Source of the DNA: a virus
Taxonomy: Duplodnaviria > Heunggongvirae > Uroviricota > Caudoviricetes
Length of the DNA stretch: 64,000 nt
Reading direction: 5' to 3' (one strand)
Virus record (IMG/VR): IMGVR_UViG_3300029743_000281
Positions 8,985 through 61,689 of the stretch are shown in pieces. The notes under the pieces were generated by a model. That model was not told the origin of the DNA and made no database searches. It was given only the letters and a program-made list of their open reading frames with translations. A program made the position numbers and the translations under genes. Position 1 is the first letter of the stretch, and each line of letters begins with the position of its first letter.

Positions 8985-9025
8985 GAAATGCAGCAGATGC
9001 GACAAATGTAAAGGGCTTCCCGGTC
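8985..9025 (-). terminator. Intrinsic terminator after the lysis operon
   Basis: Perfect 9-bp stem GGGCTTCCC-N9-GGGAAGCCC followed by TTTACATTTGT on the minus strand. Confidence 0.5.
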
Positions 9026-9110
9026 AAATTGGGAAGCCCAGAGTGCGACGTTTGAATCAGCCCGGTCTATGTGCCAGAGAGTGCTTTTGTGTCATCGCAA
9101 CGAGGTGATA

Positions 9111-45845: not shown

Positions 45846-46217
45846 TTATTCGGGCTGTGTGCCGTCGCTTGTTTGGATGGCCGCAAGTCCCGATGCGGTG
45901 CGAACGAAAAGCTCCGGATTCCAGAACCGTTTTCTGAACCTGTCCATGAGTTCCTGCGGCAAGTCCGTGAAGTCTTCCTTGCCCAACCCGCAGAGGAAGA
46001 AGCGGCCGCGGATCGGCTGTCTCAGTTCCCGGATATACCGGCTGAACAGCTTGTCCGTAAACAGTCCGTTGTCATCCGTGACCAGGGCGACCGGTTCCGG
46101 CCACGGGTAGGTTGCCGTGATGCAGTCGCAGTCCAGCACCTTATAGTACTCTTCCAGCGTGGGCTGGATATCGATCTCCTTCGGATGTTCCATCGGCTCG
46201 ATCAAAAGCACCTTCAT
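45846..46217 (-). CDS. Hypothetical protein
   Basis: Start MKVLLIEPMEHPKE overlaps the upstream stop. Confidence 0.5.
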   Translation of the reverse strand: MKVLLIEPMEHPKEIDIQPTLEEYYKVLDCDCITATYPWPEPVALVTDDNGLFTDKLFSRYIRELRQPIRGRFFLCGLGKEDFTDLPQELMDRFRKRFWNPELFVRTASGLAAIQTSDGTQPE

Positions 46218-46672
46218 TCGACCCACCCCGCTTTCACGATTGCCCAGTCGGTCAGCGATGTCTTTTCCCCAAGAAAGTCTTCCATCGCTTCGACCGTACC
46301 GCAAGTGTTGCACACCATGATCTCTGCGTAGCGGCTGATGGCTTGCTGTTGGTGGTCGTAACAGTCCGGCTCAGCGCCGCACCGTGGGCAACGTGGGCCC
46401 GTCTGTCGCGTCTTACCGAGGTGGTCGAGCGATTCCTTTACCTCGGCCTCGGACGCCACACGGTGGCAACTGTCCGCGCCGTAAGCAACGTTCAGGCTGC
46501 CGCCTGTATCCCAGGAAACCATCACATTGCCGGCATCGTCCACACCACGGCAGGTTCCCTGCGTGCCCAAGGCCGGTGCCTGGGCATCTTCCATTCGGTC
46601 CAGCACCACACGGCAGCCGACCGGGAACTGTGTCCGCAGAGTTTCTACGGTCTTTCTATCCGGAAATCTCAT
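46214..46672 (-). CDS. Hypothetical protein with C-terminal Cys4 zinc ribbon
   Basis: RBS AAGGAGGTGCAGGG then ATG; 'CPRCG...CNTCG'. Confidence 0.5.
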   Translation of the reverse strand: MRFPDRKTVETLRTQFPVGCRVVLDRMEDAQAPALGTQGTCRGVDDAGNVMVSWDTGGSLNVAYGADSCHRVASEAEVKESLDHLGKTRQTGPRCPRCGAEPDCYDHQQQAISRYAEIMVCNTCGTVEAMEDFLGEKTSLTDWAIVKAGWVE

Positions 46673-47151
46673 CCCTGCACCTCCTTGATCATCTTCTCCG
46701 CGAGTTTCTTGTTGTTGGTACACTTCTTCAGTGCGCCCTCCAAGATGTGCATCGGGAAATGAAATGCTTTATAGCCATCGTGAAGGACTCGATAGTAGTA
46801 CAGACTCGGCATTTTCTGCCCATAGTCGTGTTCCATGATGTAGACCATGGCGATGACGGTCATGGGCTCCGCATCCTTGCTCACCACCTCGACCGTCATA
46901 TTTTCCTTGCGGTAGTAGTGCGGGAAGCCCTCATAGATGTCGAGGTTCTTCTCATCGCCAGCGGAGATTTCCCACACCAGGACCGGTGTGTTCTTTCCCT
47001 TGTTCGGCAGGATGGTCGCGCAGCCGTGGAAGGCCAGCTCCCAGTCTTCCAGAACAGCCTGGCCCACAATGCGGGCATCCGGGCACCGCTGTGCCATCTG
47101 CTCCACCGACAAGTTGCTGCCGTATGCGATGTAATACTTCTTTTCGTTCAT
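46669..47151 (-). CDS. Gamma-glutamyl cyclotransferase-like (GGCT/AIG2 family) protein 1
   Basis: 'YYIAYGSNLSVEQM' signature N-terminus; 160 aa. Confidence 0.75.
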   Translation of the reverse strand: MNEKKYYIAYGSNLSVEQMAQRCPDARIVGQAVLEDWELAFHGCATILPNKGKNTPVLVWEISAGDEKNLDIYEGFPHYYRKENMTVEVVSKDAEPMTVIAMVYIMEHDYGQKMPSLYYYRVLHDGYKAFHFPMHILEGALKKCTNNKKLAEKMIKEVQG

Positions 47152-47283: not shown

Positions 47284-47820
47284 TCAGTCGATTTCTTTGA
47301 GGAACTCCACCGCTGCCGCCTTTCCGATGCTGGAAGACAGCCCGCTGTGCAATGTATCTGTCGGGAATCCCCACTCCGTATACCCGTCTGCCAACAAGTC
47401 GAAGTACTCATGGCTGGGGCAGCCGAGCTGCCTTTCTTCGTGCAAGATGTATGCCATACAGGTTTTCAGCTTCTTCATCCGATGCCCATCCAGATTCCAG
47501 ACGGGAAGCTGGAACTGCTTCTTGTAATAGTACCGAGGGCAGCCCTCATACCGATCCAGCAGCAGTTCATCAAACTCGGAAAGCAGCCATACCACAGCTG
47601 GGACGCTTTCATTGGCATCCTGCTCGATGGTGGCGTAGCACCCGGTCTTACTTTTCTTGAACAGGAGTCGGTATCCGTAGATCTCGGTAACACCGACCGG
47701 CACCGCATAGGGGCATCTGTGCCCCATCCGTTCCATGTCAAGGTTGCTGCCGTAGGCAAGATAGTACCGAGACGGCTTTCTGCTGATCCCGCCCTTGTCG
47801 AACCGGAAGTGATCAATCAC
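47284..47820 (-). CDS. Gamma-glutamyl cyclotransferase-like (GGCT/AIG2 family) protein 2 (GTG start)
   Basis: 'YYLAYGSNLDMERM'. Proposed GTG start overlaps the upstream stop (GGTGATTGA). The longer ATG ORF would overlap gene 47813..48043. Confidence 0.65.
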   Translation of the reverse strand: MIDHFRFDKGGISRKPSRYYLAYGSNLDMERMGHRCPYAVPVGVTEIYGYRLLFKKSKTGCYATIEQDANESVPAVVWLLSEFDELLLDRYEGCPRYYYKKQFQLPVWNLDGHRMKKLKTCMAYILHEERQLGCPSHEYFDLLADGYTEWGFPTDTLHSGLSSSIGKAAAVEFLKEID

Positions 47821-48043
47821 CGACCTCACCGCCTTCCGCTGCGGAAAAGTCCACGCCGTCAAAGTCCTCAGCTTCCAGAACGATCTGTCCGTTGTGCCAC
47901 CAGTCGCTGACCGCCTGGACGGCCTCATCCATCGTGGGTTCCTTGATCTCAGATTCGTTGACCTCGACCACCCGTTTGAGGGTCTCGGTGATGACCACCC
48001 GGAACGTTCTGCCGGGTGCGGTTTCTCTGGTTTCATTTTTCAT
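47813..48043 (-). CDS. Small acidic protein (76 aa)
   Basis: RBS AGAAGGAGGGCGATACGCC then ATG. Confidence 0.55.
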   Translation of the reverse strand: MKNETRETAPGRTFRVVITETLKRVVEVNESEIKEPTMDEAVQAVSDWWHNGQIVLEAEDFDGVDFSAAEGGEVGD

Positions 48044-48113
48044 GGCGTATCGCCCTCCTTCTACCGCCTAAAGGGCGGTTGCCCGCCCGATAGGTGCCCG
48101 TGCAAGTCGGCGC

Positions 48114-49049
48114 TTATGCGTTGCGCCAGCTTGCGTTGCCCTCCATATTCCGCAGAAGGATCTCCCGTGCTGTTTTGAACTCGTCCCCGATGAAGCCCAG
48201 CCGAAGCATCCAGCACCGCATTGCGTATTTCTCATTGTCAGTCTGCTGGGGCTTGGGGCTTGCGGTCTTCACCATCTTGGCAAGCTGGCTCATTGCGAGG
48301 CAAAGCTGGATGTAGGCTTTCAGCTCACCGGCGTGAAGTCCGTTCTGCTTGCCGTCGCTGGGGTCGGCAAACTGGAAAAGCCGGAATTCAATCGTGCCCT
48401 TGGTGAAGGTGGCGTGGAGGTTCAGCATATGGTATCGGCTTTCATTGTAATGTGCCGTTCTGCCGTAGTTTGCGTGGTTGCCGGCGTACCAGATGTCGGC
48501 AAGCTCGGTCATGGTCGTCGGCTTTCTCTTGTTCAGCTGGTCAAGGAATCGGGGGTCGACCACTCGGCAGTACTGTCCGGTTCTGCCTGCATCGATGCGA
48601 ATCGCTCTGCCGATCTGTTCTTCGTGGGCGGCCATGATGTTGACCAGATTCCGCAGAGTCTTGGGGGTGTGGCTGCCCTTGCCGATGTGGATGTGAACGC
48701 CGCATCCCCGGCTGGGGCTGGACTTTGCGCCAGCCTTGCGGAGCAGTCGGATGATCGCCTGCAAGGTCTCGATGTCCTCGTAGGTAAGGATGGGGGTCAC
48801 CATCTCGCACTTTTCAGCTTCCGGTCCGTGGATGCTGATGTCTCGCTGGAATTTCCAAACCCTGCCCTGCTGGTCCTTGCAAGCCCAGCTCATGTACCCG
48901 TACTCGCCGGCTGCGTACCATGCGGTCGTTCCGAAGAACTCGGCAACCTTTCTGGCTGCTTTCTCGCGGGTGATGTTGTTCATCTCAACCTCGACCCCGA
49001 TGGTCTGCATCTTCATGGCTTCGATCTGCTCTCTGGTCTTATCGTTCAT
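48114..49049 (-). CDS. Amidoligase (Amidoligase_2-like, glutamine-synthetase-like fold)
   Basis: 'QTIGVEVEMNNITR...GCGVHIHIG'; RBS AAAAGGAGATAAACACC then ATG. Confidence 0.7.
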   Translation of the reverse strand: MNDKTREQIEAMKMQTIGVEVEMNNITREKAARKVAEFFGTTAWYAAGEYGYMSWACKDQQGRVWKFQRDISIHGPEAEKCEMVTPILTYEDIETLQAIIRLLRKAGAKSSPSRGCGVHIHIGKGSHTPKTLRNLVNIMAAHEEQIGRAIRIDAGRTGQYCRVVDPRFLDQLNKRKPTTMTELADIWYAGNHANYGRTAHYNESRYHMLNLHATFTKGTIEFRLFQFADPSDGKQNGLHAGELKAYIQLCLAMSQLAKMVKTASPKPQQTDNEKYAMRCWMLRLGFIGDEFKTAREILLRNMEGNASWRNA

Positions 49050-49240
49050 GGTGTTTATCTCCTTTTGTCTTGTTCTGTTCCCCTTGCGGTATGTGCATAT
49101 TACCGTCATGTGGGGAGGATAGCAAGGCCATAAAGGGTCAAATAATCACCGATCATTCAGGGCAAAGATCGTGTACATTATGGCGAGAAATACACTTGAT
49201 ACTGTACATTTTCAGAGTTAATATCGGTACAATGGAAGAA
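49050..49240 (-). repeat. Repeated promoter-leader module, copy 8
   Basis: Same conserved core. Confidence 0.7.
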
Positions 49241-49364
49241 GCTCTCTCTTATCCGGCGGCCCCCATAAGGGGTCAGGAGCTTACGCTCCCGCCTCCTGCG
49301 CCTGGGGTGCGCCGTCAGCCCCACAGTCGGGCTGTGTGGGGGCTTCCGCTGCCGCTTCGGCCGT

Positions 49365-50411
49365 TTAAACGCCGCCGTGTGTCGCCTGTTTTGCGACTTT
49401 CAGCGCATCTCGTTTTGCCTTTTCCTTGACCCGGAACTTTTCGGCATCTTCCTTGGTGCGGAATGCCGCATGACCGGTAAGGTTCTGCATCAGGAGCTTG
49501 CGGATGGTCTTGTGTTCATCCCCGTTCAGACCCAGTCGGATCAGCCAGATGCGAAGTGCGTACTTCTCATTGGCATCGTTGACGGTCTTTGCCTGAATCC
49601 GCTTTTGGGTAACTGCCATCCGGTTCATAGCGGAACAAAGTTCTGTGTATGCACTCACCTTCTCCTGCGTCAGCGGACCGGCAAAGGTCAGGCTGATTTT
49701 TTCTGCCGTGATAGAGATTCCAGTCATGCCGGTTGTGCCGGCACCCAGGCGGTACTCTTCCAGCTCATCCAGCATCTCCTCCACCGTGCGGGTAGATGCC
49801 TGTTCCAAGGCATCCAGCAGGCTGTTCGATACCGAGAAGTTCGTGCCCATTGCTTTGTTCAACAAAGGACCGCGGCTGTACATCAGGTTCAGGAAGTTGC
49901 GGATGCTCTGGGCTGTATGCCCCGCCATCGGTAGGCTGATGGTCAGTTCGTCCACATCCTGCAAGGTCGGCTGTTCGGTCGGAACAGGCGCCTCATCCGC
50001 ATCGGTGTCGTTCACGGTGTCCATCGGCTCATCCTCGTCCACCGGTTCCTGAACTTCCGGGGATTCCTCGGCAGTTGCGCCCGACTCCTCAGTGGGCTGA
50101 GTATCCTCTGTGCTGTCCACGGTCTCATCTGACTCTTCACACTCCGATTCCGTGGTCTCCCCGCAGGCAGCTTCGGTCTCCGGGGTCTCCACGCCTTCTT
50201 CACGGATGATGCCCTCGTCCAGCAGCGTCCGGATGATCTCCGGCGCAGCGTTATCTTCGATCACAAGCGTCCCCTCCTTTTCTACGGTGTAGCTGCCGAC
50301 AATGTAAGCGCACCGCGGCATGAAAGTGTACCGGGAATGAAGCCCGGTCAACTCCATCAGGCGGCTTACCAGCACCTTGCGATCCTCGATGTTCAATGCG
50401 TACTTTTTCAT
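49365..50411 (-). CDS. Amidoligase-like paralog with a long acidic insert
   Basis: C-terminal 80 aa align with amidoligase 48114..49049 (NEKYALRIWLIRLGLNGDEHKTIRKLL vs NEKYAMRCWMLRLGFIGDEFKTAREIL). Confidence 0.55.
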   Translation of the reverse strand: MKKYALNIEDRKVLVSRLMELTGLHSRYTFMPRCAYIVGSYTVEKEGTLVIEDNAAPEIIRTLLDEGIIREEGVETPETEAACGETTESECEESDETVDSTEDTQPTEESGATAEESPEVQEPVDEDEPMDTVNDTDADEAPVPTEQPTLQDVDELTISLPMAGHTAQSIRNFLNLMYSRGPLLNKAMGTNFSVSNSLLDALEQASTRTVEEMLDELEEYRLGAGTTGMTGISITAEKISLTFAGPLTQEKVSAYTELCSAMNRMAVTQKRIQAKTVNDANEKYALRIWLIRLGLNGDEHKTIRKLLMQNLTGHAAFRTKEDAEKFRVKEKAKRDALKVAKQATHGGV

Positions 50412-50619
50412 AGCTTTGTGCTCCTTTGCCTTTGTTTTTTCGGTAGCACATATATCGCTCTAATTCGATAATATAGCAAGGCCATTTAGCGACATTTCTC
50501 ATATTCGACCCATTACACAAACCGTGCCAAACACGACTGTGCAGGATCGTCCGATATGTATGCCCACTGTATCACGGGGGCATTCTAACCTCGCAATACG
50601 GTGGGCCGTTTTATAGGAT
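50412..50619 (-). repeat. Repeated promoter-leader module, copy 9
   Basis: TTGCTA-17-GATATA; same conserved core. Confidence 0.65.
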
Positions 50620-51429
50620 TCAGCCAGCTCCGCCCTCCAGCACAGCGATGCGACGCTCAAACTCTGCCGCCTGGTTTTCCAGTGCTCCGAGTCTCTCGGC
50701 ATCCGTCTTGGGCTTTTCCTCGGTTTCTCCGTCAAGGATCAGGTAGCGTTCCATGACATATCCGGGAATGGTGTCGTAGGTTACAGCACACCAGCCGTCT
50801 CCCTGCCCGGTCACATCCAGCCGGGTACCATTGGGAATCCATGCCAGCCGGTCTGCGGTCTTGGACGGAGCTTGACGCAGACTCAATCGCCCGCCCGTGA
50901 CGGTCGCCTTGTTTCGGGTCTCCTGCATCTTGACTTCGCTCATGTCTGTTTCCTCCTGAGTCGTTCCATAGTCGATGCCCTTCAGCCGGCCACCGTATTT
51001 CCACTTACCGAGCGTTGCATCCCGGTGGATGCTGTTGCCGTTCACCGTAGTGGAACAGTGGGTGATTTCCAGCGGACGCACCTTGGTGACGATGCCTACA
51101 TGATAGTAGTCCAGCAGATCACCGCCATCCGCCTTGTAGCGGTCCGGCAGATTGTAGCTGCTGTCTCCCGGTTTTCGGGCTTTGTAGACGATCTCACCCA
51201 CAAACAGATCAGCAGATTTGATCTCTGCAAAGTCGGTCATCTGTTTCCGGGCTGCGTAGTTACTGCCGTGGATGCCATTCCAGCCTCCACCAGCCCTGCG
51301 GACCGCACCGATGATGAGACCGATGCAGTCACAGGTGCCATCCGTGCCGCTGCCGCCGATGCGATAGTCCGGTTTCGTAGCACAGATGGCTTCGAGCTGC
51401 TCCAGAAAAGCAGCTAGTTTGATGCTCAC
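50620..51429 (-). CDS. NlpC/P60-like cysteine peptidase with C-terminal SH3b domain
   Basis: 'GTCDCIGLIIGA' resembles the NlpC/P60 Cys motif DCSGLV. 'DYYHVGIVTKV' resembles the His motif. C-terminal SH3b-like region. Confidence 0.55.
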   Translation of the reverse strand: MSIKLAAFLEQLEAICATKPDYRIGGSGTDGTCDCIGLIIGAVRRAGGGWNGIHGSNYAARKQMTDFAEIKSADLFVGEIVYKARKPGDSSYNLPDRYKADGGDLLDYYHVGIVTKVRPLEITHCSTTVNGNSIHRDATLGKWKYGGRLKGIDYGTTQEETDMSEVKMQETRNKATVTGGRLSLRQAPSKTADRLAWIPNGTRLDVTGQGDGWCAVTYDTIPGYVMERYLILDGETEEKPKTDAERLGALENQAAEFERRIAVLEGGAG

Positions 51430-53678
51430 TCCGATTCACTTCCGTTCACGGGCAATCCGGCCGCCCATGCGATGCCGGACAGTACAAAAAAGACACACGG
51501 CAGCGCGACACCATTGCCCCAGAGCTTATACTCTGCGGCATCCGAATACGGATCAGCCAGCCACTTACGGATCTGCTTTTCCGTTTTCGGTTTCTTGGCA
51601 TGGGTCACAAGTCTGCGGTGTGTTTCAAACGCATCCTGCCAGAAGGCAAGTTCCTCCTCGGTGGGGTTCTCTGTAGCGAGGTCATGGCACCACCAGTCCG
51701 GAAAACCTTGCAGCCGTGCGCACTCGGTCGGGGTCAGACGGCGGACAGTATAGGATACGGGAGCCGGCTGTGCCTCCGGGTTGTCGATGACCAGCCGGTC
51801 ATTGAAAGCATCCTGCCCGTTGAAGCCGCTGGGATGCGCCCCAGTCGCCACCGTTCCCGACACGCCATCGTTCAGGTGCGGCACCGGTGCTATGGTAGTG
51901 GGGTCCTTAAAGTCCCGGGCCATAAGGGTGGGAGATACATTCTCCTCGACCCTCATGAAGGAGCCGGTGGTCATAGCGTAGACATCTTCCGGTGCGCAGA
52001 CTGCGTGACGGTCAGTGGCATCCAGCGTAAAGCAGACATCTTCGTTGATGCCGTCGCCTTGCGGACCATTCTCGTCTTTGCGACCGATCATGTTGCCCTG
52101 CAGTACGAAGGTCTGCATCTGATCGCTCCGGGTCGCCATGAGCGCACCGGACTTTCCGTGCAGGTCGATCAGCTCATTGCGCTGATTTACATGGAATGCC
52201 GTCACGTCATCCGGCTGCGCCACAAAGGTCTGCTGTTTCATTCCCGGCTGTGCAGACAGCGAACCCGCCGTCTCGCCCAGATCCCGGACTTCATCCCGCT
52301 GGTTCTGGGTAAAGGCAACCGTCTCGACCACACAGATGCCGCCCTGGTTACAGGTCGGGTCACCGCCGCTGCGATCCAGCGTCCGGGAAGTTTCCGCTTC
52401 ATAGAATCCGCTGTGGGGGTTATCCGACATCATGGAATGGCTGGCTTTCGAGCAGACACCGTAGCACTTCGGGACGAATACAGTTTGGTCATTGTTGCAG
52501 CCGAGGGTGGCGGACTTATCCTCCTGCCAGATGGCGCCCTTGCCGCCTCCTTCACACCCAGAGCGAATCTTCAGCGTGACGGCCGGCAAGTTTTCCACCC
52601 CTTCCCTACTGTTTTCCACGCCATCCAGAACCAGCGGAACATTGCCGCCGCCCGTACCGCATCTACTGGTCAGAGTCTGTACCTTGCCATCCTTGGAAAT
52701 TTTCACTCGACTGTCAGTCGGATGATTTTCCAAAGCGATGGCGGCAGGCACGACTCCGGCCCGGAGTGTAGGAGAACGTTCTTCCTCATATCCGATGCTC
52801 CTCGCATTGGCGGAGTGTTCGGTGCAAAAACCTGCGGATTCCAAAACGCAAGGCGGGTGATGTGCCTCTGCACGGAGAATGGAGGTCACCTCTTCGGTCA
52901 CATCCATCCTCTCCCCACCCTGATCGTTCAGGCATATTCTTCCGCAGCAGCCTGCCGTTCCAGTGCCGCCTTCAGCACCGGAGGCAGCTCTTTGCCACGC
53001 ACGGAAGCTCTCCGCAGAATACCCAGACACGCCTTCGGACTCAAATAATACTTTTGGAGCACCGTGGTCTGCAAAATCTGCGACAAGGTAGATGCGTTTT
53101 CTCCTTTGGGGTACGCCCCACCATTGAGCGTCAAGAACTCGATATGCGACGCTCCATCCGTCTCCCAGATAGTAATCTGCATCGGGCCAGCCTTTTTTGT
53201 CAGGCGCAGGCACCTCGGTGGACGGTTCCTTAACACCGATGACGGCTTCGAGGACTGCCTTGAAGTCCTGTCCTTTGTTTGAGGAGAAGGCCCCCGGCAC
53301 ATTCTCCCACACGATAAATCTTGGTTTTGCTCCATTGGTCTTACACCTCATTTCCTTCACGATTCGAATCGCTTCATAGAACAGGCTGGACCGTGAACCA
53401 TCCAGACCGTCTCTTTTACCGGCAATGGACATATCCTGACAAGGACTGCCAAAGGTGATGATATCCACCGGCGGCAAGTCTGCGCCGTTGATGGCGGACA
53501 CATCTCCGTAGTGCTTCACCTCCGGCAGACGCTTGGTCGTGACCCGGATGGCGAAGGGCTCCACTTCGCTGCTCCACAGCGGCGTGATACAGCCTGTCAG
53601 TAAACCGCCCAAAGGAAAACCCCCGGAGCCATCAAAGAGGCTGCCGAGGGTCAGTTGGATATTCGATTCGGTGCTCAT
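51426..53678 (-). CDS. DNA (cytosine-5)-methyltransferase, large (750 aa)
   Basis: Motif I 'FDGSGGF', motif IV 'GSPCQDMSIAG', motif VI 'ENVPG'. Confidence 0.85.
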   Translation of the reverse strand: MSTESNIQLTLGSLFDGSGGFPLGGLLTGCITPLWSSEVEPFAIRVTTKRLPEVKHYGDVSAINGADLPPVDIITFGSPCQDMSIAGKRDGLDGSRSSLFYEAIRIVKEMRCKTNGAKPRFIVWENVPGAFSSNKGQDFKAVLEAVIGVKEPSTEVPAPDKKGWPDADYYLGDGWSVAYRVLDAQWWGVPQRRKRIYLVADFADHGAPKVLFESEGVSGYSAESFRAWQRAASGAEGGTGTAGCCGRICLNDQGGERMDVTEEVTSILRAEAHHPPCVLESAGFCTEHSANARSIGYEEERSPTLRAGVVPAAIALENHPTDSRVKISKDGKVQTLTSRCGTGGGNVPLVLDGVENSREGVENLPAVTLKIRSGCEGGGKGAIWQEDKSATLGCNNDQTVFVPKCYGVCSKASHSMMSDNPHSGFYEAETSRTLDRSGGDPTCNQGGICVVETVAFTQNQRDEVRDLGETAGSLSAQPGMKQQTFVAQPDDVTAFHVNQRNELIDLHGKSGALMATRSDQMQTFVLQGNMIGRKDENGPQGDGINEDVCFTLDATDRHAVCAPEDVYAMTTGSFMRVEENVSPTLMARDFKDPTTIAPVPHLNDGVSGTVATGAHPSGFNGQDAFNDRLVIDNPEAQPAPVSYTVRRLTPTECARLQGFPDWWCHDLATENPTEEELAFWQDAFETHRRLVTHAKKPKTEKQIRKWLADPYSDAAEYKLWGNGVALPCVFFVLSGIAWAAGLPVNGSESE

Positions 53679-54445
53679 ACAGCCTCCTCTCCGAGCATCT
53701 GCTCTTTGGCTTTCAGGTAGAAATCCCTTGACACTTCAAATCCGTAGCTGTCACGTCCCAGTTCTCTGGCAGCCCGGAGCGTTGCACCGCTGCCGGCGCA
53801 AGGGTCGATGACCACATCTCCGGGATCGGTAAAGATCTTGATCAGGCGTTTCAGCACGGACACCGGTTTCTGGGACGGATGGATCTTCGGATAGTCCTTG
53901 CCATCCCGTTTCCAGTCAAACCAATTGAAGATCATGTGGGACTTGCCGTCCTCGCCGACGTTGTTGAACTTCGGGAGCTTGCCCCGGTACAAGACCAGCG
54001 CATACTCCGTTGCACCCACGATCTTCATGTTGGCTTTCAAAACCTGCGGGCTGTAGTTCTTACAGAAGGTCAGCGGGATATAGTTCTTGAAGCCGTACTT
54101 CTCAGCTTCCGTGATGACCTTGGGGATCTGCTGGAACGCACAGAACACGATCATGCACGGTGCGCCCTTTTCCCCTTTCATGGGTTCTTTCTTCAGCAGC
54201 CGGTTACAGAAATGGAAATATTCTGCGATATTGAAAGTGAAGTCGGTGTTGAATGCCGCTTTCCGGGCCTTATCGCTCTCTCCATTCCGGTTATCTCCGT
54301 CCACATACCAATCCGGGCGGCTGGCGTAGAAGTCCGACCCGATGTTATACGGGATGTCGGCGATCACCAGCTGTGCCTTGGGGATGTTGTAGGACTTGAA
54401 GTTCTGGAAGTTGTTATGGAACAGGACACATCTGGGTTCAGTCAT
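53675..54445 (-). CDS. DNA N6-adenine/N4-cytosine methyltransferase (N6_N4_Mtase family)
   Basis: 'LVIADIPYN' DPPY-type motif and C-terminal 'VIDPCAGSGATL'. Confidence 0.8.
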   Translation of the reverse strand: MTEPRCVLFHNNFQNFKSYNIPKAQLVIADIPYNIGSDFYASRPDWYVDGDNRNGESDKARKAAFNTDFTFNIAEYFHFCNRLLKKEPMKGEKGAPCMIVFCAFQQIPKVITEAEKYGFKNYIPLTFCKNYSPQVLKANMKIVGATEYALVLYRGKLPKFNNVGEDGKSHMIFNWFDWKRDGKDYPKIHPSQKPVSVLKRLIKIFTDPGDVVIDPCAGSGATLRAARELGRDSYGFEVSRDFYLKAKEQMLGEEAV

Positions 54446-55706
54446 CTGCGTCCTCCTGTTCCGGCTGAAAGGACGCCACCTCATCGAACTTCAGCTTTTG
54501 ACCGTCACGGAGGACATACACATCCTCGTAGCGACCTTCGCTGTGTTCGATATAGCGCTTGACGATAACATCCACGAACTTGGGGTCAAGCTCAATGCCC
54601 CGGCACACCCGGTCAGTCTCCTCACAGGCGATCAAGGTCGAGCCGCTGCCGAGGAAGGGGTCAAGGACGATGCCGTTGGTCATGGTGGAGTTGCGGATGG
54701 GATAGCTCATCAGGCCGATGGGCTTCATGGTCGGGTGATCTTTGTTTGCTTTGGGACGGTCGTACTCCCAGATGGTGGTCTGCTTACGGTCGGAGTACCA
54801 CTGGTGCTTGCCCTTCAGTTTCCACCCATAGAGGCAGGGTTCATGCTGCCACTGATAGGGACTGCGACCCAGCACCAGAGCATTCTTTTTCCAGATGCAG
54901 CAACCGGACAGATAGAATCCCGCATCCTTGAACGCCTTTCGGAAATTCAGACCTTCCGTATCGGCGTGGAAGATGTAGATGGAACCGTCATCCGCCAGAT
55001 GACCGTGCATCTGCTTAAACGCCGCCAGCAGGAACTCGTAGAATTCCGAGTCGCCCATGTTGTCGTTCATGATCTTACCGGCCGATTCTTCCACATCTAC
55101 ATTGTACGGGGGATCGGAAAGCACAAGGTTGGCCTTCACGCCGTCCATCAGGGTATCGTAGCACTCAGCCTTCGTAGAATCACCGCACAGAACACGGTGC
55201 CGGCCCAGCATCCAAAGGTCACCTGCCTGCGAGAAGGTCGGCTGCTTCATCTCAGATTCCACATCGAAGTCATCTTCCTTGATGTCCTTGTCGTGGACCT
55301 TGTTGAACAGCGTCTCGATCTCAGGCGGCTCAAAGCCCGTCTTGCCCAGGTCGAAGTTGGAGTTCTCGATATCCTTCAGCAGGTCAGCCAGCAGGGAATC
55401 ATCCCACGCGCCGGTGATCTTGTTGAGCGCAATGTTCAGAGCTTTTTCTCGGTTCTTGTCGATGTCCACCACCGCACAAGGCACTTCGGTATAACCCAGT
55501 GCCATCGCAACGGTCAGGCGTTGATGGCCGCCGATGATCGTCATATCGGCATTGACCACCAGCGGATCGGCAAAACCAAACTCCTCAATGGAGTTCTTAA
55601 TCTTCTCGTACTCCTTGTCCCCCGGCTTCAGCTTTTTTCGGGGATTGTATGCAGCCGGCTTGAGTACGGTCACCGGCAGCATTTTCAGTTCAGCAGTTGC
55701 TTTCAT
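54438..55706 (-). CDS. ParB-like nuclease domain fused to a DNA methyltransferase
   Basis: N-terminal ParB-like 'LKPAAYNPRK...GGHQRL'; C-terminal 'LVLSDPPYN' and 'VLDPFLGSGSTLIAC'. Confidence 0.8.
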   Translation of the reverse strand: MKATAELKMLPVTVLKPAAYNPRKKLKPGDKEYEKIKNSIEEFGFADPLVVNADMTIIGGHQRLTVAMALGYTEVPCAVVDIDKNREKALNIALNKITGAWDDSLLADLLKDIENSNFDLGKTGFEPPEIETLFNKVHDKDIKEDDFDVESEMKQPTFSQAGDLWMLGRHRVLCGDSTKAECYDTLMDGVKANLVLSDPPYNVDVEESAGKIMNDNMGDSEFYEFLLAAFKQMHGHLADDGSIYIFHADTEGLNFRKAFKDAGFYLSGCCIWKKNALVLGRSPYQWQHEPCLYGWKLKGKHQWYSDRKQTTIWEYDRPKANKDHPTMKPIGLMSYPIRNSTMTNGIVLDPFLGSGSTLIACEETDRVCRGIELDPKFVDVIVKRYIEHSEGRYEDVYVLRDGQKLKFDEVASFQPEQEDADD

Positions 55707-55950
55707 GTAGTTCCTCCCAGTTCAGATTCACACACGCATGACCTCGGAGAACGGTACGAAAAAGGAGCCGAACTCAAAGCCCGACTCCAATTCATCGCTG
55801 TCCCCGCCCATCTCCGACTGCGGTTTTTCCGTAATCGGATACCATTCCGGGTCTTTCTCGTTCATGGATGCAAGGACCCTGTCCTCTGCATGGTCAATCG
55901 CGTGTACACAGATGCCTGCGGTGTTGCAGACTGCAAATACGCCAATCACT

Positions 55951-56253
55951 TTATTTTCCAATGCTGCTCTCTCCCTTCGCCCTGCCTTTATTGGCACAGG
56001 CTCGACTGCAATATTTTCTCGGAAGTCCGTACTGGTGCCGATAGGAAAACTCTCTGCCGCACATCGGGCAGACCTTTGACCACACGGTCTTCCAGTTCTG
56101 CGGTCTTGGGTGGGTGTTGTTCCACTTGGATCGGCATTCCGGGGAACAGAATTTTCTCGGTCGTCCCCGATGGTTCGGAACGATGGCAGCACCACACTGC
56201 GGACAGAAGGAAAATGCCATGTCCTTGATCATCTCGGCCGTGTAATCTTCCAT
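55951..56253 (-). CDS. Zinc-ribbon protein (two CxxC pairs x2)
   Basis: 'CPQCG...CSPEC...CPMCG...CSRAC'. Confidence 0.5.
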   Translation of the reverse strand: MEDYTAEMIKDMAFSFCPQCGAAIVPNHRGRPRKFCSPECRSKWNNTHPRPQNWKTVWSKVCPMCGREFSYRHQYGLPRKYCSRACANKGRAKGESSIGK

Positions 56254-56362
56254 CCATCCTCACCCCGTCCTCATTTTTCGCCGTTTCTATGTCAGTTCCA
56301 GTGGAAAATCTCAAAAAGCATACGAAAAGAATCGAAGCGGCAGCCGGCCCTGCCCCGCCGGG

Positions 56363-57013
56363 TTAGCTTGTTTTTGCGGCGTCCGGCTGCTGCTGGCTTC
56401 TCCATGTCCCGGAACAAGCTAAAACGTGCGAAAAAGCCCATGTTGCAAGGGTTTTCACACGCTTTGGTTCATTTCGGGGGAAAACAAAAGGCACCGGAGC
56501 GTTCACCCCGATGCCATCATCTTCACCTTGTTCATTTTGCGCCGTTAATTCCGGGACCCCCGGCCTATGAATTTTGCGTTTTTTTACACGAAAGGGGCCA
56601 CCGGTCTTCTGTTGACTTCGCCACAGAGAAGTGACCCCGGCCCCCGGTGGGGGTCTGTAGCGGTACACCGGGTGGATGTCTTTGGTCAGAGTCTTGCGGT
56701 CATGGCAGGCTTTGCACATCGGCTGCCAGTTTGCTTCGTCCCAGAATAGTCCGGAATCGCCACGGTGCGGTGTGATATGGTCTACCACGGTGGCTTTCGT
56801 GTATCTCCCCTGCCTCATGCACTCGGCGCAGAGCGGATGGGCTTGGAGGTACTGCCTGCTTATTTTTTGCCACTGTCTTGTATAGCCACGCTTACCCGCT
56901 GGGCGTGTGACTTCCGGGTGCAGCGGCAGATGCTTCGCACAGTAAAGGCTGCCCGGCTCAACCAGCTCCGGGCAACCGGGGTGTCGGCACGGCACCTTGG
57001 GTCTGCGGGGCAT
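56363..57013 (-). CDS. HNH endonuclease
   Basis: 'CAECMRQGRYTKATVVDHITPHRGD...NWQPMCKACHDRKT'. Confidence 0.75.
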   Translation of the reverse strand: MPRRPKVPCRHPGCPELVEPGSLYCAKHLPLHPEVTRPAGKRGYTRQWQKISRQYLQAHPLCAECMRQGRYTKATVVDHITPHRGDSGLFWDEANWQPMCKACHDRKTLTKDIHPVYRYRPPPGAGVTSLWRSQQKTGGPFRVKKRKIHRPGVPELTAQNEQGEDDGIGVNAPVPFVFPRNEPKRVKTLATWAFSHVLACSGTWRSQQQPDAAKTS

Positions 57014-57016
57014 GGG

Positions 57017-58084
57017 TCATTCCTCCCACGGCAGACCGGGCTTGCCGAAGTGACCGTAGGCACTGACCTTGTTGTAGTCCACGTCCAGCAGACCCAGACG
57101 CTGGATGATACCCTGCGGGGTCAGGTCGTAGCTGTCCTTGACGTAAGCCTGGATGAAGTCCAGCGGCTGGTGTTCCGTGCCGAAACACTCCACCGCCACG
57201 CCCACCGGCTGTACCACACCGATGGCATACGCCAGCTGGACTTCGCACTTGTCAGCGTAGCCGGCCTGCACGATGTCCTTGGCGATCTTCCGTGCCATAT
57301 ATGCTGCGGACCTGTCCACCTTGGTGGGGTCTTTGCCACTGAGGGCACCGCCGCCCATTCGACCGATACCGCCGTAGGTATCGCACGCCAGCTTACGGCC
57401 GGTGACACCACAGTCGGCGTAGCTGCCACCCAGCACGAACCGACCGGTGGGGTTCACCAGTTTCTGGAAGTTCCCGTCCAGACCGTACTCACAGGCAGCC
57501 AGCACCATCATGGATTCGATGATGTGGCGGAAGTCGCTGACCTCCACGTCCGGGCTGTGCTGCACGGAGCAGAGGAACGTAGTGATTCGGCCGGTGTCGT
57601 AGTCGTAGCTGACCTGCGCCTTGGCATCTGCCCGGAACATCTTGCTCGGATGGTTCTTCAGCAGTTGCAGGAACTTGGTGGCGACCATGTAGGGGATCGG
57701 CATCTGTTCGGCAGTCTCGTTGGTGGCATAACCGTACATGATGCCCTGGTCACCGGCACCGCCCTTATCCACGCCCAGTGCAATATCCGGCGACTGCTTA
57801 TCGACCAGGATGCCGATGCGGAGCAGTTCCCGGAAATCAAAGCCCATCTTGTCTGCACCGATACGGGTGATGACCTCATGGACGATCTGCTGGTAGTTGG
57901 GCTGGTAATCGGTGGTGACCTCGCCAGCGATAAAGAGCTGGCTGCGTTTCAGCAGACACTCGGTTGCCACACGGGCGTTCTTGTCGTGCTGGAGGATGTC
58001 GGTCACAATGGCATCTGCGATCTGGTCGCAGATCTTGTCCGGGTGGCCGTTGCTGACCTGCTCACAGGTGATAATCTTGCTCAT
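57017..58084 (-). CDS. metK: S-adenosylmethionine synthetase (MetK homolog, short form ~355 aa)
   Basis: Signatures 'GHPDKICDQIADA', 'GAGDQGIMYGYA', 'DTYGG', 'GGGALSGKDPTKVDRSAAY'. Confidence 0.85.
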   Translation of the reverse strand: MSKIITCEQVSNGHPDKICDQIADAIVTDILQHDKNARVATECLLKRSQLFIAGEVTTDYQPNYQQIVHEVITRIGADKMGFDFRELLRIGILVDKQSPDIALGVDKGGAGDQGIMYGYATNETAEQMPIPYMVATKFLQLLKNHPSKMFRADAKAQVSYDYDTGRITTFLCSVQHSPDVEVSDFRHIIESMMVLAACEYGLDGNFQKLVNPTGRFVLGGSYADCGVTGRKLACDTYGGIGRMGGGALSGKDPTKVDRSAAYMARKIAKDIVQAGYADKCEVQLAYAIGVVQPVGVAVECFGTEHQPLDFIQAYVKDSYDLTPQGIIQRLGLLDVDYNKVSAYGHFGKPGLPWEE

Positions 58085-58099
58085 AGCTGTTCCTCGCTT

Positions 58100-58560
58100 T
58101 CATGTATCACAAAGCAGGCCGCCTTTGCCGTTGCCCACAAACGTAGGCTCCCACAAAAGCTGCCTGCTCAGTATCGTGTGGTTTTCATCTTTTTGTTGCT
58201 GGTCTGTTGCCAGTTCTTCCCTCACAAAATGAGGGGTCAGATTCTTAAAAAGCATTGTTATTACGATGTTTTCAAGGCTTTCATTCTACTCTTTTTATCT
58301 TTTGTTGCTAATGTTGCTGGTAAAAAGTAAATCGCATATAAAAGAAAAGAATAATAAAAAAATAGGGTTTTGAGTCGCAACATCAGCAACACGTCCAAAA
58401 GCGCCGATATATCAGCGTTTTTCTGTTGCCGGTCTGTTGCCGATGTTGCTGGTCGAGGCTCAGAAGTGGTCTTGCAGTTCTGTAAAACCCAACTTTTGTG
58501 GCCATGGTGAGTCGCTTTCACGACTGAGCCGTGCCGCCCTTGTGTTCACTCTGCGGTCAC
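58100..58560. promoter_or_regulatory. AT-rich region with clustered TGTTGC iterons (candidate replication origin and/or operator array)
   Basis: At least 9 copies of TGTTGC in paired arrangements (TGTTGCtggtcTGTTGCcag; TGTTGCtaaTGTTGCtggt; TGTTGCcggtcTGTTGCcgaTGTTGCtggtcg) around an A-rich tract. Lies directly upstream of the primase-helicase gene. Confidence 0.5.
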
Positions 58561-60965
58561 TCCGGCACTACATTGAAGTCGCCTTTTGTGGTTTCGGAGA
58601 GGCAGAATTCCACGCCCAAAACGATCTGTGTTGTACTGCCGACACCATCCGCCGGACGCTTTTTCTGCACTGTGTACCTCTTGTCGATCTCGGCATTCAG
58701 CACCTTGGCCGAGTCTGCCCTGTACCCGTTTTCAGCACACCATTCCTTGTAGCGTGTATAAACGGCAGCACGGCGAAGCTCACTATCTGCTTTCGGTTGG
58801 AGACATTCACTGAAGAACTGCCCCATCTTATCCGAGAACATCTGGTAGTCCATGGTGGCCTGCACGACAGAATCCGGCATCTCCAGACCCTGACTGCGAA
58901 ACAACTTATACCCTTCCAGCATCCAGTTCAGGATACCAGACATATTTTCCGGTTCCGCAAAGAAGCCCTTCAATCCCTTATCCTGCTCTTTTTCATCAAA
59001 GTGGCGGTCAAAGGGAATGATTTTGATACGACCGGACTCGAACAAGGTCAGGTCCGTGATGTTCGGACGGTGGTTCGTGTTGATGAAGATCTTGAAGTTC
59101 GGACGGAACTCGAAGCTATTCTCATGCAAATATCGGGCCGTGATGGTGTCGTTACCAGTCAGGCGTTTGGTCAGGGCTGCATCCAACGTGATCTTCTTCT
59201 CCGGCTCAGAGATATTAACAAACCGGGAGCCGGCAAGGCGTGCAATCTCCTCAGACGGTCCGCCACTTTGGGCATTGAACTTTGCCTGCAGCATAGTCGG
59301 GTCGGCGTTTTTGCCGTACTCGCCCATGATCCGCAGGATGCTTTCCATGGTGGTGCCCTTGCCGTTTCGGGAAGTAGGACCATAGAGGATGAACAGACAT
59401 TCCATCCTCGTATCACCGGTCAAGGCGTATCCGATGGCTTTTTGCAGATAGTCGGCTCTCGCCTTATCCCCTTGCATGATCTCTGTGATGAAAGTCCGCC
59501 AGCGAGGGCAGTCTGCTTTCGGGTCATAGATGACCGGGGACACCTTTGTGAGGTAGTCGTCCGGGCGGTGTTCCCGGAACTCCATCGTCCGCAGATCCAG
59601 CGTTCCGTTCTGGCAGTTGAACAGGTAGATATCCCGGTCGTAGTGTTTCATGGACAGTGGGAACACAGACTTTGCATCCTTCAGCATGGTTTCCCGATGC
59701 TTTCTGAGCTGGAGCTTCCGCACCCTGTCGATGAATCGCTTTCGGGCATCTTCCTCTGTGATCGTCAGGGCAAACACATACAGCTTGTCTGCCAGCAGCT
59801 TCGCTAGTTCCGCCACCTTGAGGTTTTCTGTGTCCGGCTGCCAGACCTTCCCGTCATAAACATACCAGATGCCGCGCTCACTGTTATACCGGGCGATGGG
59901 CTTGAAGAAATCGGCAAACATATTGCCCATGCCGATCTCATCCCTGCCGTATCTGGGATTGGTGTGCGGAGCCATCTCATCCAACGACAGGGTGAGCTTT
60001 GTGATGTCCGGCTGGAACTCCGGGGATTTAGACTCCGGGTCAAGGTTTGTGAACTCCTCGTCCACGATGTCCTGTGCGTTGACCGGAACGTACACCGCTG
60101 CACAGGTGTTGACGGTGTTCCGAATGGAGATCGCACCGTAAGTCGTACCGGCCTGCCGGCGATCCCACTTGTCACGCATCAGGCCGGAGGTGCGAAAGAT
60201 GCGGTCCATCTGTTCTTCATCGCAGCCGCACCAGAACGCAAGGATGGACAGAAGTGCCATGTCCGCATCCGACTGGCTGTCATAGAGTTCTTCCCAGTCA
60301 CCGGCGTAGAGCTTCTTGAACTTGTCGCTGTTGCTGGCCTCCTCTGCATGGGCAATGACCGCGTCATCGTCCAGATACGAATGATGCCGAAGCTGTGTGT
60401 TCTGCACCTGCTTGTTGCGCTTCATCAGCGAATCCAGCAAGGTGGTCATAGCCGTCTCATCGTTGGGGATCTCCCCTGTGCGGTAAACATCTCCCGTCAC
60501 GGTGACGAAGCGGTTTGTCGCACCGGGCATGTACACTTCCAGCCCTTTGCTTCGGTTGTTGATGTAATAGACCGTCTTGTCATAGACAAAATCTTCCGGC
60601 ACACAGAAAAAGCCTCGCAGTCCCTTGCCGGACGGAGACTTCTCAACGTATGCCGTGGGGAAAATAGAAAGGACGGTCGCCGCTGTGTCATTCAGCGTAC
60701 CGTCCTCTCGGATACAGTGGTCTATATCGAATGCGCCGATGCCGTTTCCAACTGCAATGCCGATGCCGTCATAACCACCCATCGCGTAAGCCATGAGGGT
60801 GGTTTTGAAATCGGCAAATGTGCGCAGGTCGTTGATTCTGGCCCGGTCTCCATTGACCGGGTTGTACGGCATCTTGGTCTTCTGACCGCTGCGCTTTTCA
60901 AACTTCCAGACGCAGAACCGGCAGTCACTCTTCAGTTTCGCCGGAATGTTCTTGATGTCTACCAC
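58557..60965 (-). CDS. Replicative primase-helicase (PrimPol-like N-terminus, primase C-terminal domain, D5/P4-type SF3 helicase)
   Basis: 802 aa; Walker A 'GPTSRNGKGT'; N-terminal PrimPol-like 'GIAVGNGIGAFDIDH'. Confidence 0.8.
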   Translation of the reverse strand: MVDIKNIPAKLKSDCRFCVWKFEKRSGQKTKMPYNPVNGDRARINDLRTFADFKTTLMAYAMGGYDGIGIAVGNGIGAFDIDHCIREDGTLNDTAATVLSIFPTAYVEKSPSGKGLRGFFCVPEDFVYDKTVYYINNRSKGLEVYMPGATNRFVTVTGDVYRTGEIPNDETAMTTLLDSLMKRNKQVQNTQLRHHSYLDDDAVIAHAEEASNSDKFKKLYAGDWEELYDSQSDADMALLSILAFWCGCDEEQMDRIFRTSGLMRDKWDRRQAGTTYGAISIRNTVNTCAAVYVPVNAQDIVDEEFTNLDPESKSPEFQPDITKLTLSLDEMAPHTNPRYGRDEIGMGNMFADFFKPIARYNSERGIWYVYDGKVWQPDTENLKVAELAKLLADKLYVFALTITEEDARKRFIDRVRKLQLRKHRETMLKDAKSVFPLSMKHYDRDIYLFNCQNGTLDLRTMEFREHRPDDYLTKVSPVIYDPKADCPRWRTFITEIMQGDKARADYLQKAIGYALTGDTRMECLFILYGPTSRNGKGTTMESILRIMGEYGKNADPTMLQAKFNAQSGGPSEEIARLAGSRFVNISEPEKKITLDAALTKRLTGNDTITARYLHENSFEFRPNFKIFINTNHRPNITDLTLFESGRIKIIPFDRHFDEKEQDKGLKGFFAEPENMSGILNWMLEGYKLFRSQGLEMPDSVVQATMDYQMFSDKMGQFFSECLQPKADSELRRAAVYTRYKEWCAENGYRADSAKVLNAEIDKRYTVQKKRPADGVGSTTQIVLGVEFCLSETTKGDFNVVPE

Positions 60966-61363
60966 GTTCTCGCCTCCTTCTTGGTAATAGTGTCGGCAGT
61001 GCCCATGTTAAAGAACACCGCGATTGCCTGCTCCACTTCCCGCTGCTTGGCGGTAGAGGTCAGGCTTCCCAGCTTGTTCAGCAGGGCGTTCTTTCCGATG
61101 GTCGTGACCTGCTCTGCCAGTGCGACAGAGTTGCGCAGATACGCATGGTCATTGATCATTTGACAGTCTGCCTCTGCGATCTGAATGTGCGTGGGCAGAC
61201 CCTGCTTCTTCTGCACGGTGGTCAGGGGGATCACCGTCAGGGTGCTGGAGAAGCGGTTTGCCACATCGTTGCTGATGACCAGCACCGGGCGGCTGCCGCT
61301 CTGCACGGAACTGCCGTAATGGTCGCCCAGCTCGGCAAACCAGATTTCAAACCGCTGCACCAC
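60959..61363 (-). CDS. MazF/PemK/EndoA-family endoribonuclease toxin (GTG start proposed)
   Basis: 'FEIWFAELGDHYGSSVQSGSRPVLVISNDVANRFSSTLTVIPLTT' closely parallels B. subtilis EndoA/MazF. The track ORF extends 100 codons upstream as basic low-complexity sequence with no ATG. Confidence 0.7.
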   Translation of the reverse strand: MVQRFEIWFAELGDHYGSSVQSGSRPVLVISNDVANRFSSTLTVIPLTTVQKKQGLPTHIQIAEADCQMINDHAYLRNSVALAEQVTTIGKNALLNKLGSLTSTAKQREVEQAIAVFFNMGTADTITKKEARTW

Positions 61364-61689
61364 CTGCTGCGGAGAATCCTGCTGCGGTATGTCCTGCCGC
61401 AACGCTTCCTTCTGGGCAGACTTTTCAGATCGGGCAGTGTGCTGCTTGCGGAGCAGCCGCCCTTTCTGGTTGATGTATTTATTCACATGAGGTCTTGAAC
61501 GACCGTTCTTATTCTTGCGACCCAATGAAAACTCACCTCTTTTTCCCGGTCGATAGACCTTGGGTTGATGTAAAAGTAAAAAGCCGGACAGAGAAGTCAC
61601 AGCTTTGGCGGCGAATCGATCGCCGCAACAAAAAAGCCGAAGCAAAGTCATTTCTGACCGCCTCGGCAATACGCTTCTCTATCCAGCTT

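Follow-up and report, generated by a model that had tools for sequence, protein, structure and literature searches.

The stretch analysed here (IMG/VR virus record IMGVR_UViG_3300029743_000281; its 64,000 nucleotides are referred to below as the window) carries on the minus strand, at 51426-58084, five open reading frames (ORFs). They encode an S-adenosylmethionine (SAM) synthetase (MetK), an HNH endonuclease, a fusion of a ParB_N domain with an amino-methyltransferase (ParB-MTase), a second amino-MTase and a C5-cytosine MTase; together they form the DNA-modification block of a temperate siphovirus. From the sequence and its relatives, we consider it probable that a SAM synthetase free of riboswitch control supports phage-encoded DNA methylation for anti-restriction, and we are highly confident of the enzyme identities predicted for the genes. 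The pairing of metK with a C5-methylase gene in phages has already been published, and the window is one more genome of this kind. What is added here is the missing riboswitch, the cassette-built C5-MTase, the mini-MetK of sister phages and a reading of the HNH protein. An earlier, sequence-only reading of the window had recognised the same set of adjacent genes, and all five ORFs are present where it had placed them; it had put MetK last, whereas along the direction of transcription metK opens the row.

MetK is a short form of the enzyme. The Pfam domains PF00438, PF02772 and PF02773 all score above their cut-offs and span residues 4-354 (E 2e-55, 1.4e-27 and 1e-24), the NCBIfam equivalog TIGR01034 (EC 2.5.1.6) is matched at 401.8 bits for a cut-off of 309.4, and phrog_1569 is matched with an E value of 5.6e-135. 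Residues 4-354 also align with E. coli MetK structures (E ~6e-97), and over a global alignment the protein is 48% identical to E. coli MetK. The sequence-only reading had proposed a bona fide but shortened MetK with the motifs GHPDKICDQ, GAGDQG and DTYGG; the domains, the equivalog score, the motifs and the length of 355 amino acids (aa) all bear this out. It had also held that lysine or aspartate residues missing on careful alignment would speak against the enzyme. In the global alignment, 19 of the 19 functional residues checked are kept (in E. coli numbering H14, D16, K17, E42, E55, Q98, D118, D163, K165, S186, T227, R229, F230, D238, R244, K245, K265, K269 and D271).

The protein is 29 residues shorter than E. 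coli MetK, owing to five small loop deletions and the absence of the last ~14 residues. Judged by its relatives, the short form is not a defect, since phrog_1569 is 346 positions long, relatives of 355-360 aa number in the thousands in the protein database (one cluster has 5,635 members), and the chromosome of Oribacterium parvum carries a metK for a 354-aa protein that has its own SAM riboswitch and no phage genes nearby. The nearest long cellular MetKs (377-397 aa) are 43-50% identical to the phage MetK, so the phage clade is old rather than a recent capture. Median dN/dS (the rate of non-synonymous substitution divided by that of synonymous substitution) was 0.064 over 66 pairs with related viral copies, all of which share the window sequence and are therefore not independent. 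By these measures MetK is intact and under strong purifying selection. One could still imagine that the short protein is catalytically dead, or has taken on a role other than catalysis, perhaps as partner to the HNH protein or to terminase. Its reduced length would fit such a role, as would its coupling to the HNH gene: the metK stop codon and the HNH start codon (57011-57019) are in the same frame, 3 nt apart, and an in-frame MetK-HNH fusion of 476 aa exists in the protein database (cluster P0008, 11 members). Given the complete set of catalytic and binding residues, the TIGR01034 score, a low dN/dS over the entire protein and a riboswitch-bearing chromosomal counterpart of nearly the same length in O. 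parvum, we regard this as extremely unlikely.

Cellular MetKs of Firmicutes under the control of the SAM-I (S-box) riboswitch have the same fold and all the catalytic residues of the phage protein. In a small sample of genome loci, hand-picked from the best 80 matches, 10 of 12 long cellular metK genes had a SAM-I riboswitch immediately upstream, as did the short chromosomal Oribacterium gene, whereas none preceded the phage-context copies at loci L173, L175 and L179. In the window, no SAM riboswitch was detected at Rfam gathering thresholds, and none was detected around metK even at permissive thresholds. The permissive scan, run on 55600-58700, returned a single match, to RsaOG, which was rejected as being at chance level. 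Without a SAM riboswitch, the phage metK would therefore be a feedback-free copy, unlike most of the cellular genes sampled.

The placing of MetK beside methylases is not peculiar to the window. At least 402 relatives of MetK were found in IMG/VR, and the best 80 loci were compared. In nearly all of them the order was MazF-like protein, primase/helicase, MetK, HNH, zinc-ribbon protein, ParB-MTase, (second amino-MTase) and C5-MTase, continuing with a 348-aa amidoligase-associated protein, an amidoligase and a GGACT-type protein. The same architecture was found in the Streptococcus prophage Javan55 and in the Evtepia phage NatCom_42594 of Ca. Heliusvirales. Streptococcus phiNJ3 and Erysipelothrix phi1605 have MetK and a ParB-type adenine MTase, with no C5-MTase in the stretch compared; phi1605 represents a looser form, with a full-length MetK and the HNH gene upstream of it. 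In INPHARED, 138 phage records match MetK, most of them annotated as SAM synthetase. The metK of Helicobacter 'phage' records (Pt11061_1) was not counted, as it is fragmented, has ndk, plsX and fabH after it and is probably host flank taken into the prophage call. The association noted by the sequence-only reading is thus kept in the gene order of hundreds of viral contigs and extends to distant phages of Firmicutes.

Two groups of relatives are informative. Among Streptococcus prophages, metK is carried by the Javan series, phiNJ3/phiD12, 12/111phiA ('group A') and the Phi1207.3/phi-m46.1 type. They share with the window the order primase/helicase...MetK-HNH-zinc finger-ParB-type adenine MTase-(C5-MTase)...terminase; their MetK, also short (~345 aa), is 54-58% identical to that of the window, and their TerL 75-77%; in Javan55 and phiNJ3, MetK is ~57% and TerL ~76% identical. 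They differ in their host, in having no second amino-MTase, in the ordinary size of the Javan55 C5-MTase (417 aa), and in that their methylation block lies directly before the terminase, whereas in the window ~10 kb intervenes, with genes for an SH3-domain protein, amidoligase, GGACT, DUF4314 and Nmad4. The second group, Ca. Heliusvirales (the NatCom_ genomes; PMC11283538), consists of human-gut temperate siphoviruses of Firmicutes, as is the window phage. They have in common with it the ParB-MTase, the long C5-MTase and the amidoligase and GGACT genes; in pairwise comparison, the window TerL is 76% identical to that of NatCom_42228 and 64% identical to that of NatCom_991. The window has a P4-type primase/helicase, in contrast to the polymerase and helicase of the described Ca. 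Heliusvirales marker set, and many Ca. Heliusvirales have a mini-MetK or no MetK instead of the 355-aa form.

In the Heliusvirales paper (Nat Commun 2024, PMC11283538), the C5-methylase K00558 was present in 67% and the SAM synthetase K00789 in 58.9% of 1032 genomes, which made them the commonest auxiliary genes reported; the methylase was credited with anti-restriction. Viral metK was reported by Kieft et al. to keep its substrate-binding motifs, to have dN/dS below 1 and to be expressed in the environment; they also found metK and dcm on the same genomes, including those of Streptococcus suis phages. Together with a Streptococcus agalactiae study in which a prophage 'endonuclease-metK' pair was mutated, these reports had made the pairing known, which is why the window counts as a further case.

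The C5-MTase is the largest protein of the block. The core motifs are present in order: I (FDGSGG, residue 15), IV (PCQ, 79), VI (ENV, 125), VIII (QRRKR, 191), IX (RRLTPTECARLQGFP, ~646) and X (GNG, 721). Between motif VIII (residue ~200) and motif IX (residue ~644) there are 444 aa, compared with ~100 aa in M.HhaI. By reading, this variable region was divided into ~11 short cassettes, each with an [S/T]-[L/I/V] core that leads into a short hydrophobic run, for instance SPTLRAG...IALE, VQTLTSRCGTGGGNVPLVLD, SATLGCNNDQTVFVP, SRTLDRSGG...VVE, FTLDATDRHAVCAP and SPTLMARDFKDPTTIAP. Self-BLAST of the region revealed no repeats, and the only obvious internal duplicate is the pair 454-488 and 493-527 (~46% identical by eye). 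The 48 homologues from related contigs range from 648 to 821 aa, and cassettes of 19-40 aa are cleanly present or absent at unit boundaries; one is found in 31 of the 48, another in 14, and several in only 1-3. Heliusvirales records typically have such long forms, most of which carry the annotation 'hypothetical protein' or 'DNA methyltransferase'.

Multispecific C5-MTases are known from temperate Bacillus phages (SPR, phi3T, rho11s, SPbeta MtbP and H2; Trautner laboratory), in which one catalytic core is combined with several short target-recognition modules arranged in a row between motifs VIII and IX. The window enzyme resembles them in being phage-encoded, in having no cognate nuclease and in the position of its putative modules. 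Modules differ between related Bacillus phages, and the 19-40-aa cassettes come and go in a similar way. It is much longer, however (750 aa against 443 aa for MtbP). From this architecture we infer that the window C5-MTase may be multispecific, methylating several 5-methylcytosine (m5C) motifs.

The other two MTases both belong to the beta class of amino-MTases. The sequence-only reading was right in counting three MTases, but not in assigning each to a different specificity class. In the ParB-MTase, PF02195 is matched at residues 6-88 (34.4 bits for a cut-off of 26.3), PF01555 at 98.3 bits and phrog_498 with an E value of 1e-186, and the ParB-like PHROGs 620 and 8071 are matched as well. Motif IV is DPPY, followed by FLGSG, an order that places the enzyme in the beta class; DPPY is found in 55 of 57 orthologues. 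The closest solved relative is of the M.HpyAVI/DpnA type, dN/dS is 0.07, and the target is probably N6-adenine. A comparison with the non-specific adenine methylase M.EcoGII, which would have implied a huge SAM demand had that enzyme carried a ParB domain, was dropped, as its paper gives it no additional domains.

In the second amino-MTase, whose solved relatives are M.HpyAVI and CcrM, the first proline of motif IV is replaced, giving DIPY. This atypical motif is found in 40 of 40 orthologues, and dN/dS is 0.10. The second enzyme is optional, being found in about half of the close relatives. In NatCom_991 (L090:8249-9004) and NatCom_17901 (L091:8123-8983), a gene with a PAPS-reductase domain occupies its slot between the ParB-MTase and the C5-MTase, which thus appears to be a variable DNA-modification position. 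Stop and start codons overlap from the ParB-MTase to the second amino-MTase, from there to the C5-MTase (by 4 nt) and on to the following SH3-domain gene.

Two small ORFs lie upstream of the ParB-MTase. The zinc-ribbon protein, with its motif CxxC...RKFCSxxC present twice, also matches the C-terminal parts of HNH PHROGs 1271 and 15471; by tblastn its position is kept in relatives, and phiNJ3 has an annotated 'zinc-finger protein' there. The other ORF has no Pfam or PHROG match, and only its C-terminal ~87 aa (residues 69-155 of the 155-aa mechanical ORF) are kept in relatives (tblastn).

Sister phages lacking the 355-aa MetK provided a further indication. In NatCom_991 and NatCom_17901, a ~260-275-aa protein, which we call mini-MetK, is encoded directly upstream of the ParB-MTase. 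Its identity to the window MetK is 26% (BLASTP E 6e-14), and only the N-terminal MetK Pfam domain passes its threshold, but equivalents of HPDK, E42, E55, GDxG, DxK, D238, RK, GKD and KxD are kept. Mini-MetK was found in 25 annotated phage records, mostly as 'hypothetical', and in at least 594 IMG/VR stretches. The ParB-MTase starts within 50 nt of the mini-MetK end in 68 of the 69 loci with enough downstream sequence, and a regular MetK was found within 4 kb of mini-MetK in none of 80 loci; among the matches listed and the local loci, the two forms thus appear to be mutually exclusive. The occurrence of two very different forms of SAM synthetase in one module speaks for a need for SAM synthesis at this place.

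The HNH gene deserves separate treatment. The domain itself is clear (PF01844 at residues 62-108, 36.5 bits; HNH PHROGs with E values down to 1e-36), and the endonuclease named by the sequence-only reading is indeed present. The length of the ORF, 216 aa, is another matter. In 71 of 79 relatives, the HNH ORF is 119 aa long and ends in ...PVYRY, and DNA comparison with locus L013 showed that the ancestral TGA following this end has become AGA in the window (56654-56656). The ORF is 216 aa long only because of this stop loss, which may be a genuine change or an error in the sequence. Most likely, the true protein comprises residues 1-119 (57013-56657); residues 120-216 (56363-56656) are a non-conserved read-through tail, which runs across a terminator-like hairpin.

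What the HNH protein does may be deduced from its company. In phages of the HK97/P27 type, an HNH protein (the kind of HK97 gp74) commonly helps the terminase. The head and packaging module of the window is, by its TerS and TerL families and its ClpP-like protease, of this type. The window HNH lies ~15 kb from TerS/TerL, and that of Javan55 4.5 kb upstream; in NatCom_991, the ORF following the HNH gene gives a sub-threshold match to Terminase_4 (22.7 bits for a cut-off of 24.7). Because of the type of packaging module, the HNH PHROG matches and the NatCom_991 match, we think it probable that the HNH protein serves packaging and does not act with the MTases in restriction, and its inclusion in a methylation island by the sequence-only reading is less likely.

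The metK and HNH genes may constitute a transcription unit of their own. The non-coding region upstream of metK contains iteron-like TGTTGC(C/T) repeats, direct and inverted, around an AT-rich core (~58330-58365), and a promoter scan gave two sigma-70-like matches (58380-58351 and 58311-58283); the region is probably an origin, a promoter region for a metK-HNH unit, or both. Downstream, the hairpin lies ~140 nt after the ancestral HNH stop and is present in 65 related loci with strongly conserved flanks (for example CCCCGAAATGAACCAAAG). Its consensus fold of 11 pairs shows one-sided changes only and no double compensatory change, so that conservation of the structure is suggestive only. It may mark the end of the metK-HNH unit, or be another regulatory or packaging signal.

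Such a layout keeps alive a different explanation, namely that metK is a lysogenic-conversion gene (moron), which alters the host through SAM-dependent pathways (aggregation, biofilm, polyamines, the activated methyl cycle) and stands beside the methylases incidentally. Promoter-like sites upstream and a conserved terminator-like hairpin after HNH would give it a cassette-like layout, and in S. agalactiae, deletion and complementation of the endonuclease-metK pair of prophage 12/111phiA altered flocculation, chain length, glycocalyx and biofilm. The complementation was partial, however, and confounded by secondary mutations. Moreover, metK is tightly coupled to a packaging-type HNH gene and sometimes fused to it, and the abutment of mini-MetK on the ParB-MTase ties SAM synthesis to methylases, not to host traits. 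We therefore consider lysogenic conversion, by any of these pathways, rather unlikely.

The reading that we prefer, SAM synthesis in support of phage methylation, may be put as follows. During lytic growth, the phage would produce a SAM synthetase of its own that escapes the SAM-I feedback restraining cellular metK in related Firmicutes, and SAM supply would keep pace with the methylation of many progeny genomes at many sites. The two amino-MTases would contribute N6-methyladenine or N4-methylcytosine, and the multi-cassette C5-MTase m5C at several different motifs; fully methylated progeny DNA would then escape restriction in the next host. Methionine, ATP and the removal of S-adenosylhomocysteine (SAH) would still come from the host, and the HNH protein between metK and the MTases would act in packaging. 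MetK would be an accessory booster rather than an obligate part, as it is missing from some sister phages that have the same methylases, and many encode a ~260-aa mini-MetK directly before the ParB-MTase instead.

Several observations weigh against this reading. The riboswitch contrast was drawn from a small, hand-picked set of loci, and the layout around metK and HNH, with a promoter-like region on one side and a conserved hairpin on the other, sets the two genes apart from the MTases. Multispecificity of the C5-MTase is deduced from its architecture; in the comparison with SPbeta MtbP, the catalytic core and a weak 'FT(L/V)..DRH.V' stretch aligned, and no significant similarity was found in the recognition domains. 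Nor does the presence of MetK simply track methylase load. Of three sister phages with an equally long C5-MTase and no 355-aa MetK, two have mini-MetK, and the third, NatCom_28274, has a ParB-MTase and a 742-aa C5-MTase with neither form of MetK near the module, which shows that MetK is optional. Conversely, MetK can accompany a C5-MTase of ordinary size, as shown by the 432-aa enzyme of the Evtepia phage and by that of Javan55. There are also phages in which metK lies away from methylases, namely Faecalibacterium phage FP_Brigit and Microcystis phage Mel-JY01. In S. agalactiae, the published metK mutants changed the aggregation and biofilm of the lysogen.

The gene content of the window also bears on this point. 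A Pfam scan of 56 minus-strand ORFs of 58 aa or more, with six large ORFs identified via PHROGs or NCBIfam, revealed no domain of SAH nucleosidase, SAH hydrolase, LuxS or methionine synthesis. Methylation in the window cannot, then, be called 'self-sufficient', as it had been: no gene for SAH recycling or methionine supply is found among the ORFs scanned. The broader proposal, that the phage supplies its own SAM synthetase alongside methylases for anti-restriction, agrees with the gene set, the synteny and the intact MetK, although MetK is optional and the pairing was already in print.

Another explanation is that MetK acts on the SAM pool independently of the phage MTases, extra SAM offsetting its destruction by competing phages or host systems, or shifting SAM-dependent modification enzymes of the host from restricting incoming phage DNA to methylating it. 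SAM levels do decide the outcome of Type I restriction and BREX, as is known from the SAM lyase (SAMase) of phage T3, likewise a phage enzyme acting on the host SAM pool; the T3 strategy is the opposite one, as T3 destroys SAM, inhibits host MetK and disarms SAM-dependent defences, whereas the window phage would make SAM for its own MTases. The metK genes without a nearby methylase in Mel-JY01 and FP_Brigit would also fit. Yet no host defence that depletes SAM was found in the literature searched, and the sequence-only reading's suggestion of a counter to such defences finds no support here. Extra SAM should, besides, favour SAM-dependent restriction too, and it would be left unexplained why metK is so strongly and repeatedly linked to phage methylases in this lineage. 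We hold this explanation to be quite unlikely.

It has also been proposed that viral metK and C5-methylase are general auxiliary metabolic genes. Kieft et al. class metK and dcm as organosulfur auxiliary genes, and the Heliusvirales paper (PMC11283538) places both under cysteine and methionine metabolism; on this account they would reprogramme host methionine and cysteine (organosulfur) metabolism rather than protect DNA. The classification derives from KEGG pathway membership, which is not evidence of function. In the window, the 'dcm' is a DNA MTase whose DNA-recognition region is large; it shares an operon with two more MTases and lies beside packaging genes, and the ORFs scanned include no further gene of sulfur metabolism or the methionine cycle. 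A metabolic role of this kind thus seems very unlikely.

A stronger version of the preferred reading can be formulated, in which SAM synthesis is built into a hyper-methylation machine: the C5-MTase would recognise ~10 targets with cassettes shuffled among closely related gut phages, and MetK or mini-MetK would feed the ParB-MTase, possibly through physical coupling. We consider this version doubtful. If it were true, mini-MetK, previously uncharacterised, would be among the smallest known SAM synthetases.

The coordinates of the features are collected in Table 1.

Table 1. Positions of the features discussed, in window coordinates unless a locus is named
Feature	Position	Strand	Matches or remarks
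Large terminase (TerL)	39431-41056		phrog_9
Small terminase (TerS)	41053-41529		phrog_83
C5-cytosine DNA MTase, 750 aa	51426-53678	minus	PF00145 (E 6e-41), TIGR00675
Variable region of the C5-MTase, residues ~205-640	51759-53066	minus	putative array of target-recognition domains
Second beta-class amino-MTase, 269 aa (256 aa from Met14 at 54445)	53675-54484	minus	PF01555 (88.6 bits), phrog_67
ParB_N and N6_N4_Mtase fusion	54438-55706	minus	PF02195, PF01555, phrog_498
Small ORF just upstream of the ParB-MTase	55728-55990	minus	start codon uncertain
Protein of 100 aa with two zinc-ribbon motifs	55951-56253	minus	weak Pfam zinc-ribbon matches, phrog_2308
HNH endonuclease ORF, 216 aa	56363-57013	minus	PF01844, HNH PHROGs 144, 2323 and 589
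Terminator-like hairpin, 11-bp stem, then T-run	56490-56515	minus	terminator scan
metK, SAM synthetase (methionine adenosyltransferase), short form, 355 aa	57017-58084	minus	Pfam, TIGR01034, phrog_1569
Non-coding region between the primase/helicase gene and metK, ~470 bp	58085-58556	minus
Mini-MetK of NatCom_991	L090:6121-6948		family also in L091 and L093-L172

The remainder of the window is that of a phage, as the sequence-only reading had assumed: it encodes large and small terminase, portal, ClpP-type protease, major head protein, a tape measure of 1957 aa, holin, endolysin and four large serine recombinases. It comes from a temperate siphovirus related to Ca. Heliusvirales and to Streptococcus prophages of the Javan/phiD12 type. 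A prophage of Clostridium fessum SNUG30386 has a MetK copy 94% identical to that of the window, with the same gene order and neighbours, which suggests that the likely host clade is Lachnospiraceae, such as C. fessum. Scans of the window for tRNAs and for Rfam families at gathering thresholds gave no matches.

Other features of the window may be recorded. The serine recombinases (1056-3017, 5199-6413, 6403-7914 and 7927-9027) are clustered at one end, beside the lysis genes, with an AAA_25 ATPase (3027-3998) among them; four are unusually many for one prophage. Two paralogous tail-fibre-like proteins with a common N-terminus, of 664 aa (12074-14068) and 872 aa (14215-16833), are likely receptor-modifying enzymes; a C-terminal GDSL/SGNH esterase domain was found in the 872-aa copy, the one of the two taken in by the Pfam scan. 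A membrane protein with an SPFH/Band-7 domain (31581-32414) is encoded among the tail and head-tail genes. Small proteins with the Nmad4 (nucleotide-modification-associated) and DUF4314 domains are encoded at 42232-42516 and 46214-46723; Nmad4 hints at additional nucleic-acid modification functions. Between the MTases and the terminase, at 47284-51429, lie genes for the SH3-domain protein (a possible NlpC/P60-like N-terminus could not be confirmed), an acidic protein of 348 aa similar to the N-terminal portion of an 'amidoligase' PHROG, an Amidoligase_2 protein and a gamma-glutamyl cyclotransferase of the GGACT type. This cluster is kept in relatives and resembles a peptide-ligation or modification system. 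Finally, just upstream of the primase/helicase gene, and also kept in relatives, is a protein with a MazF-like toxin domain (60959-61669; residues ~105-232) preceded by a ~100-aa N-terminal extension.

Phage-borne methylases are a main route of restriction escape in the gut, and the lineage to which the window belongs is reported in most human guts. The parts most worth experiment are the modular C5-MTase and the mini-MetK of the sister phages. The C5-MTase would be a natural library of cytosine-methylation specificities. If an unregulated phage SAM synthetase does enable full methylation at many motifs, SAM supply would be a testable bottleneck in the arms race between phages and their hosts, and would mirror the destruction of SAM by T3.

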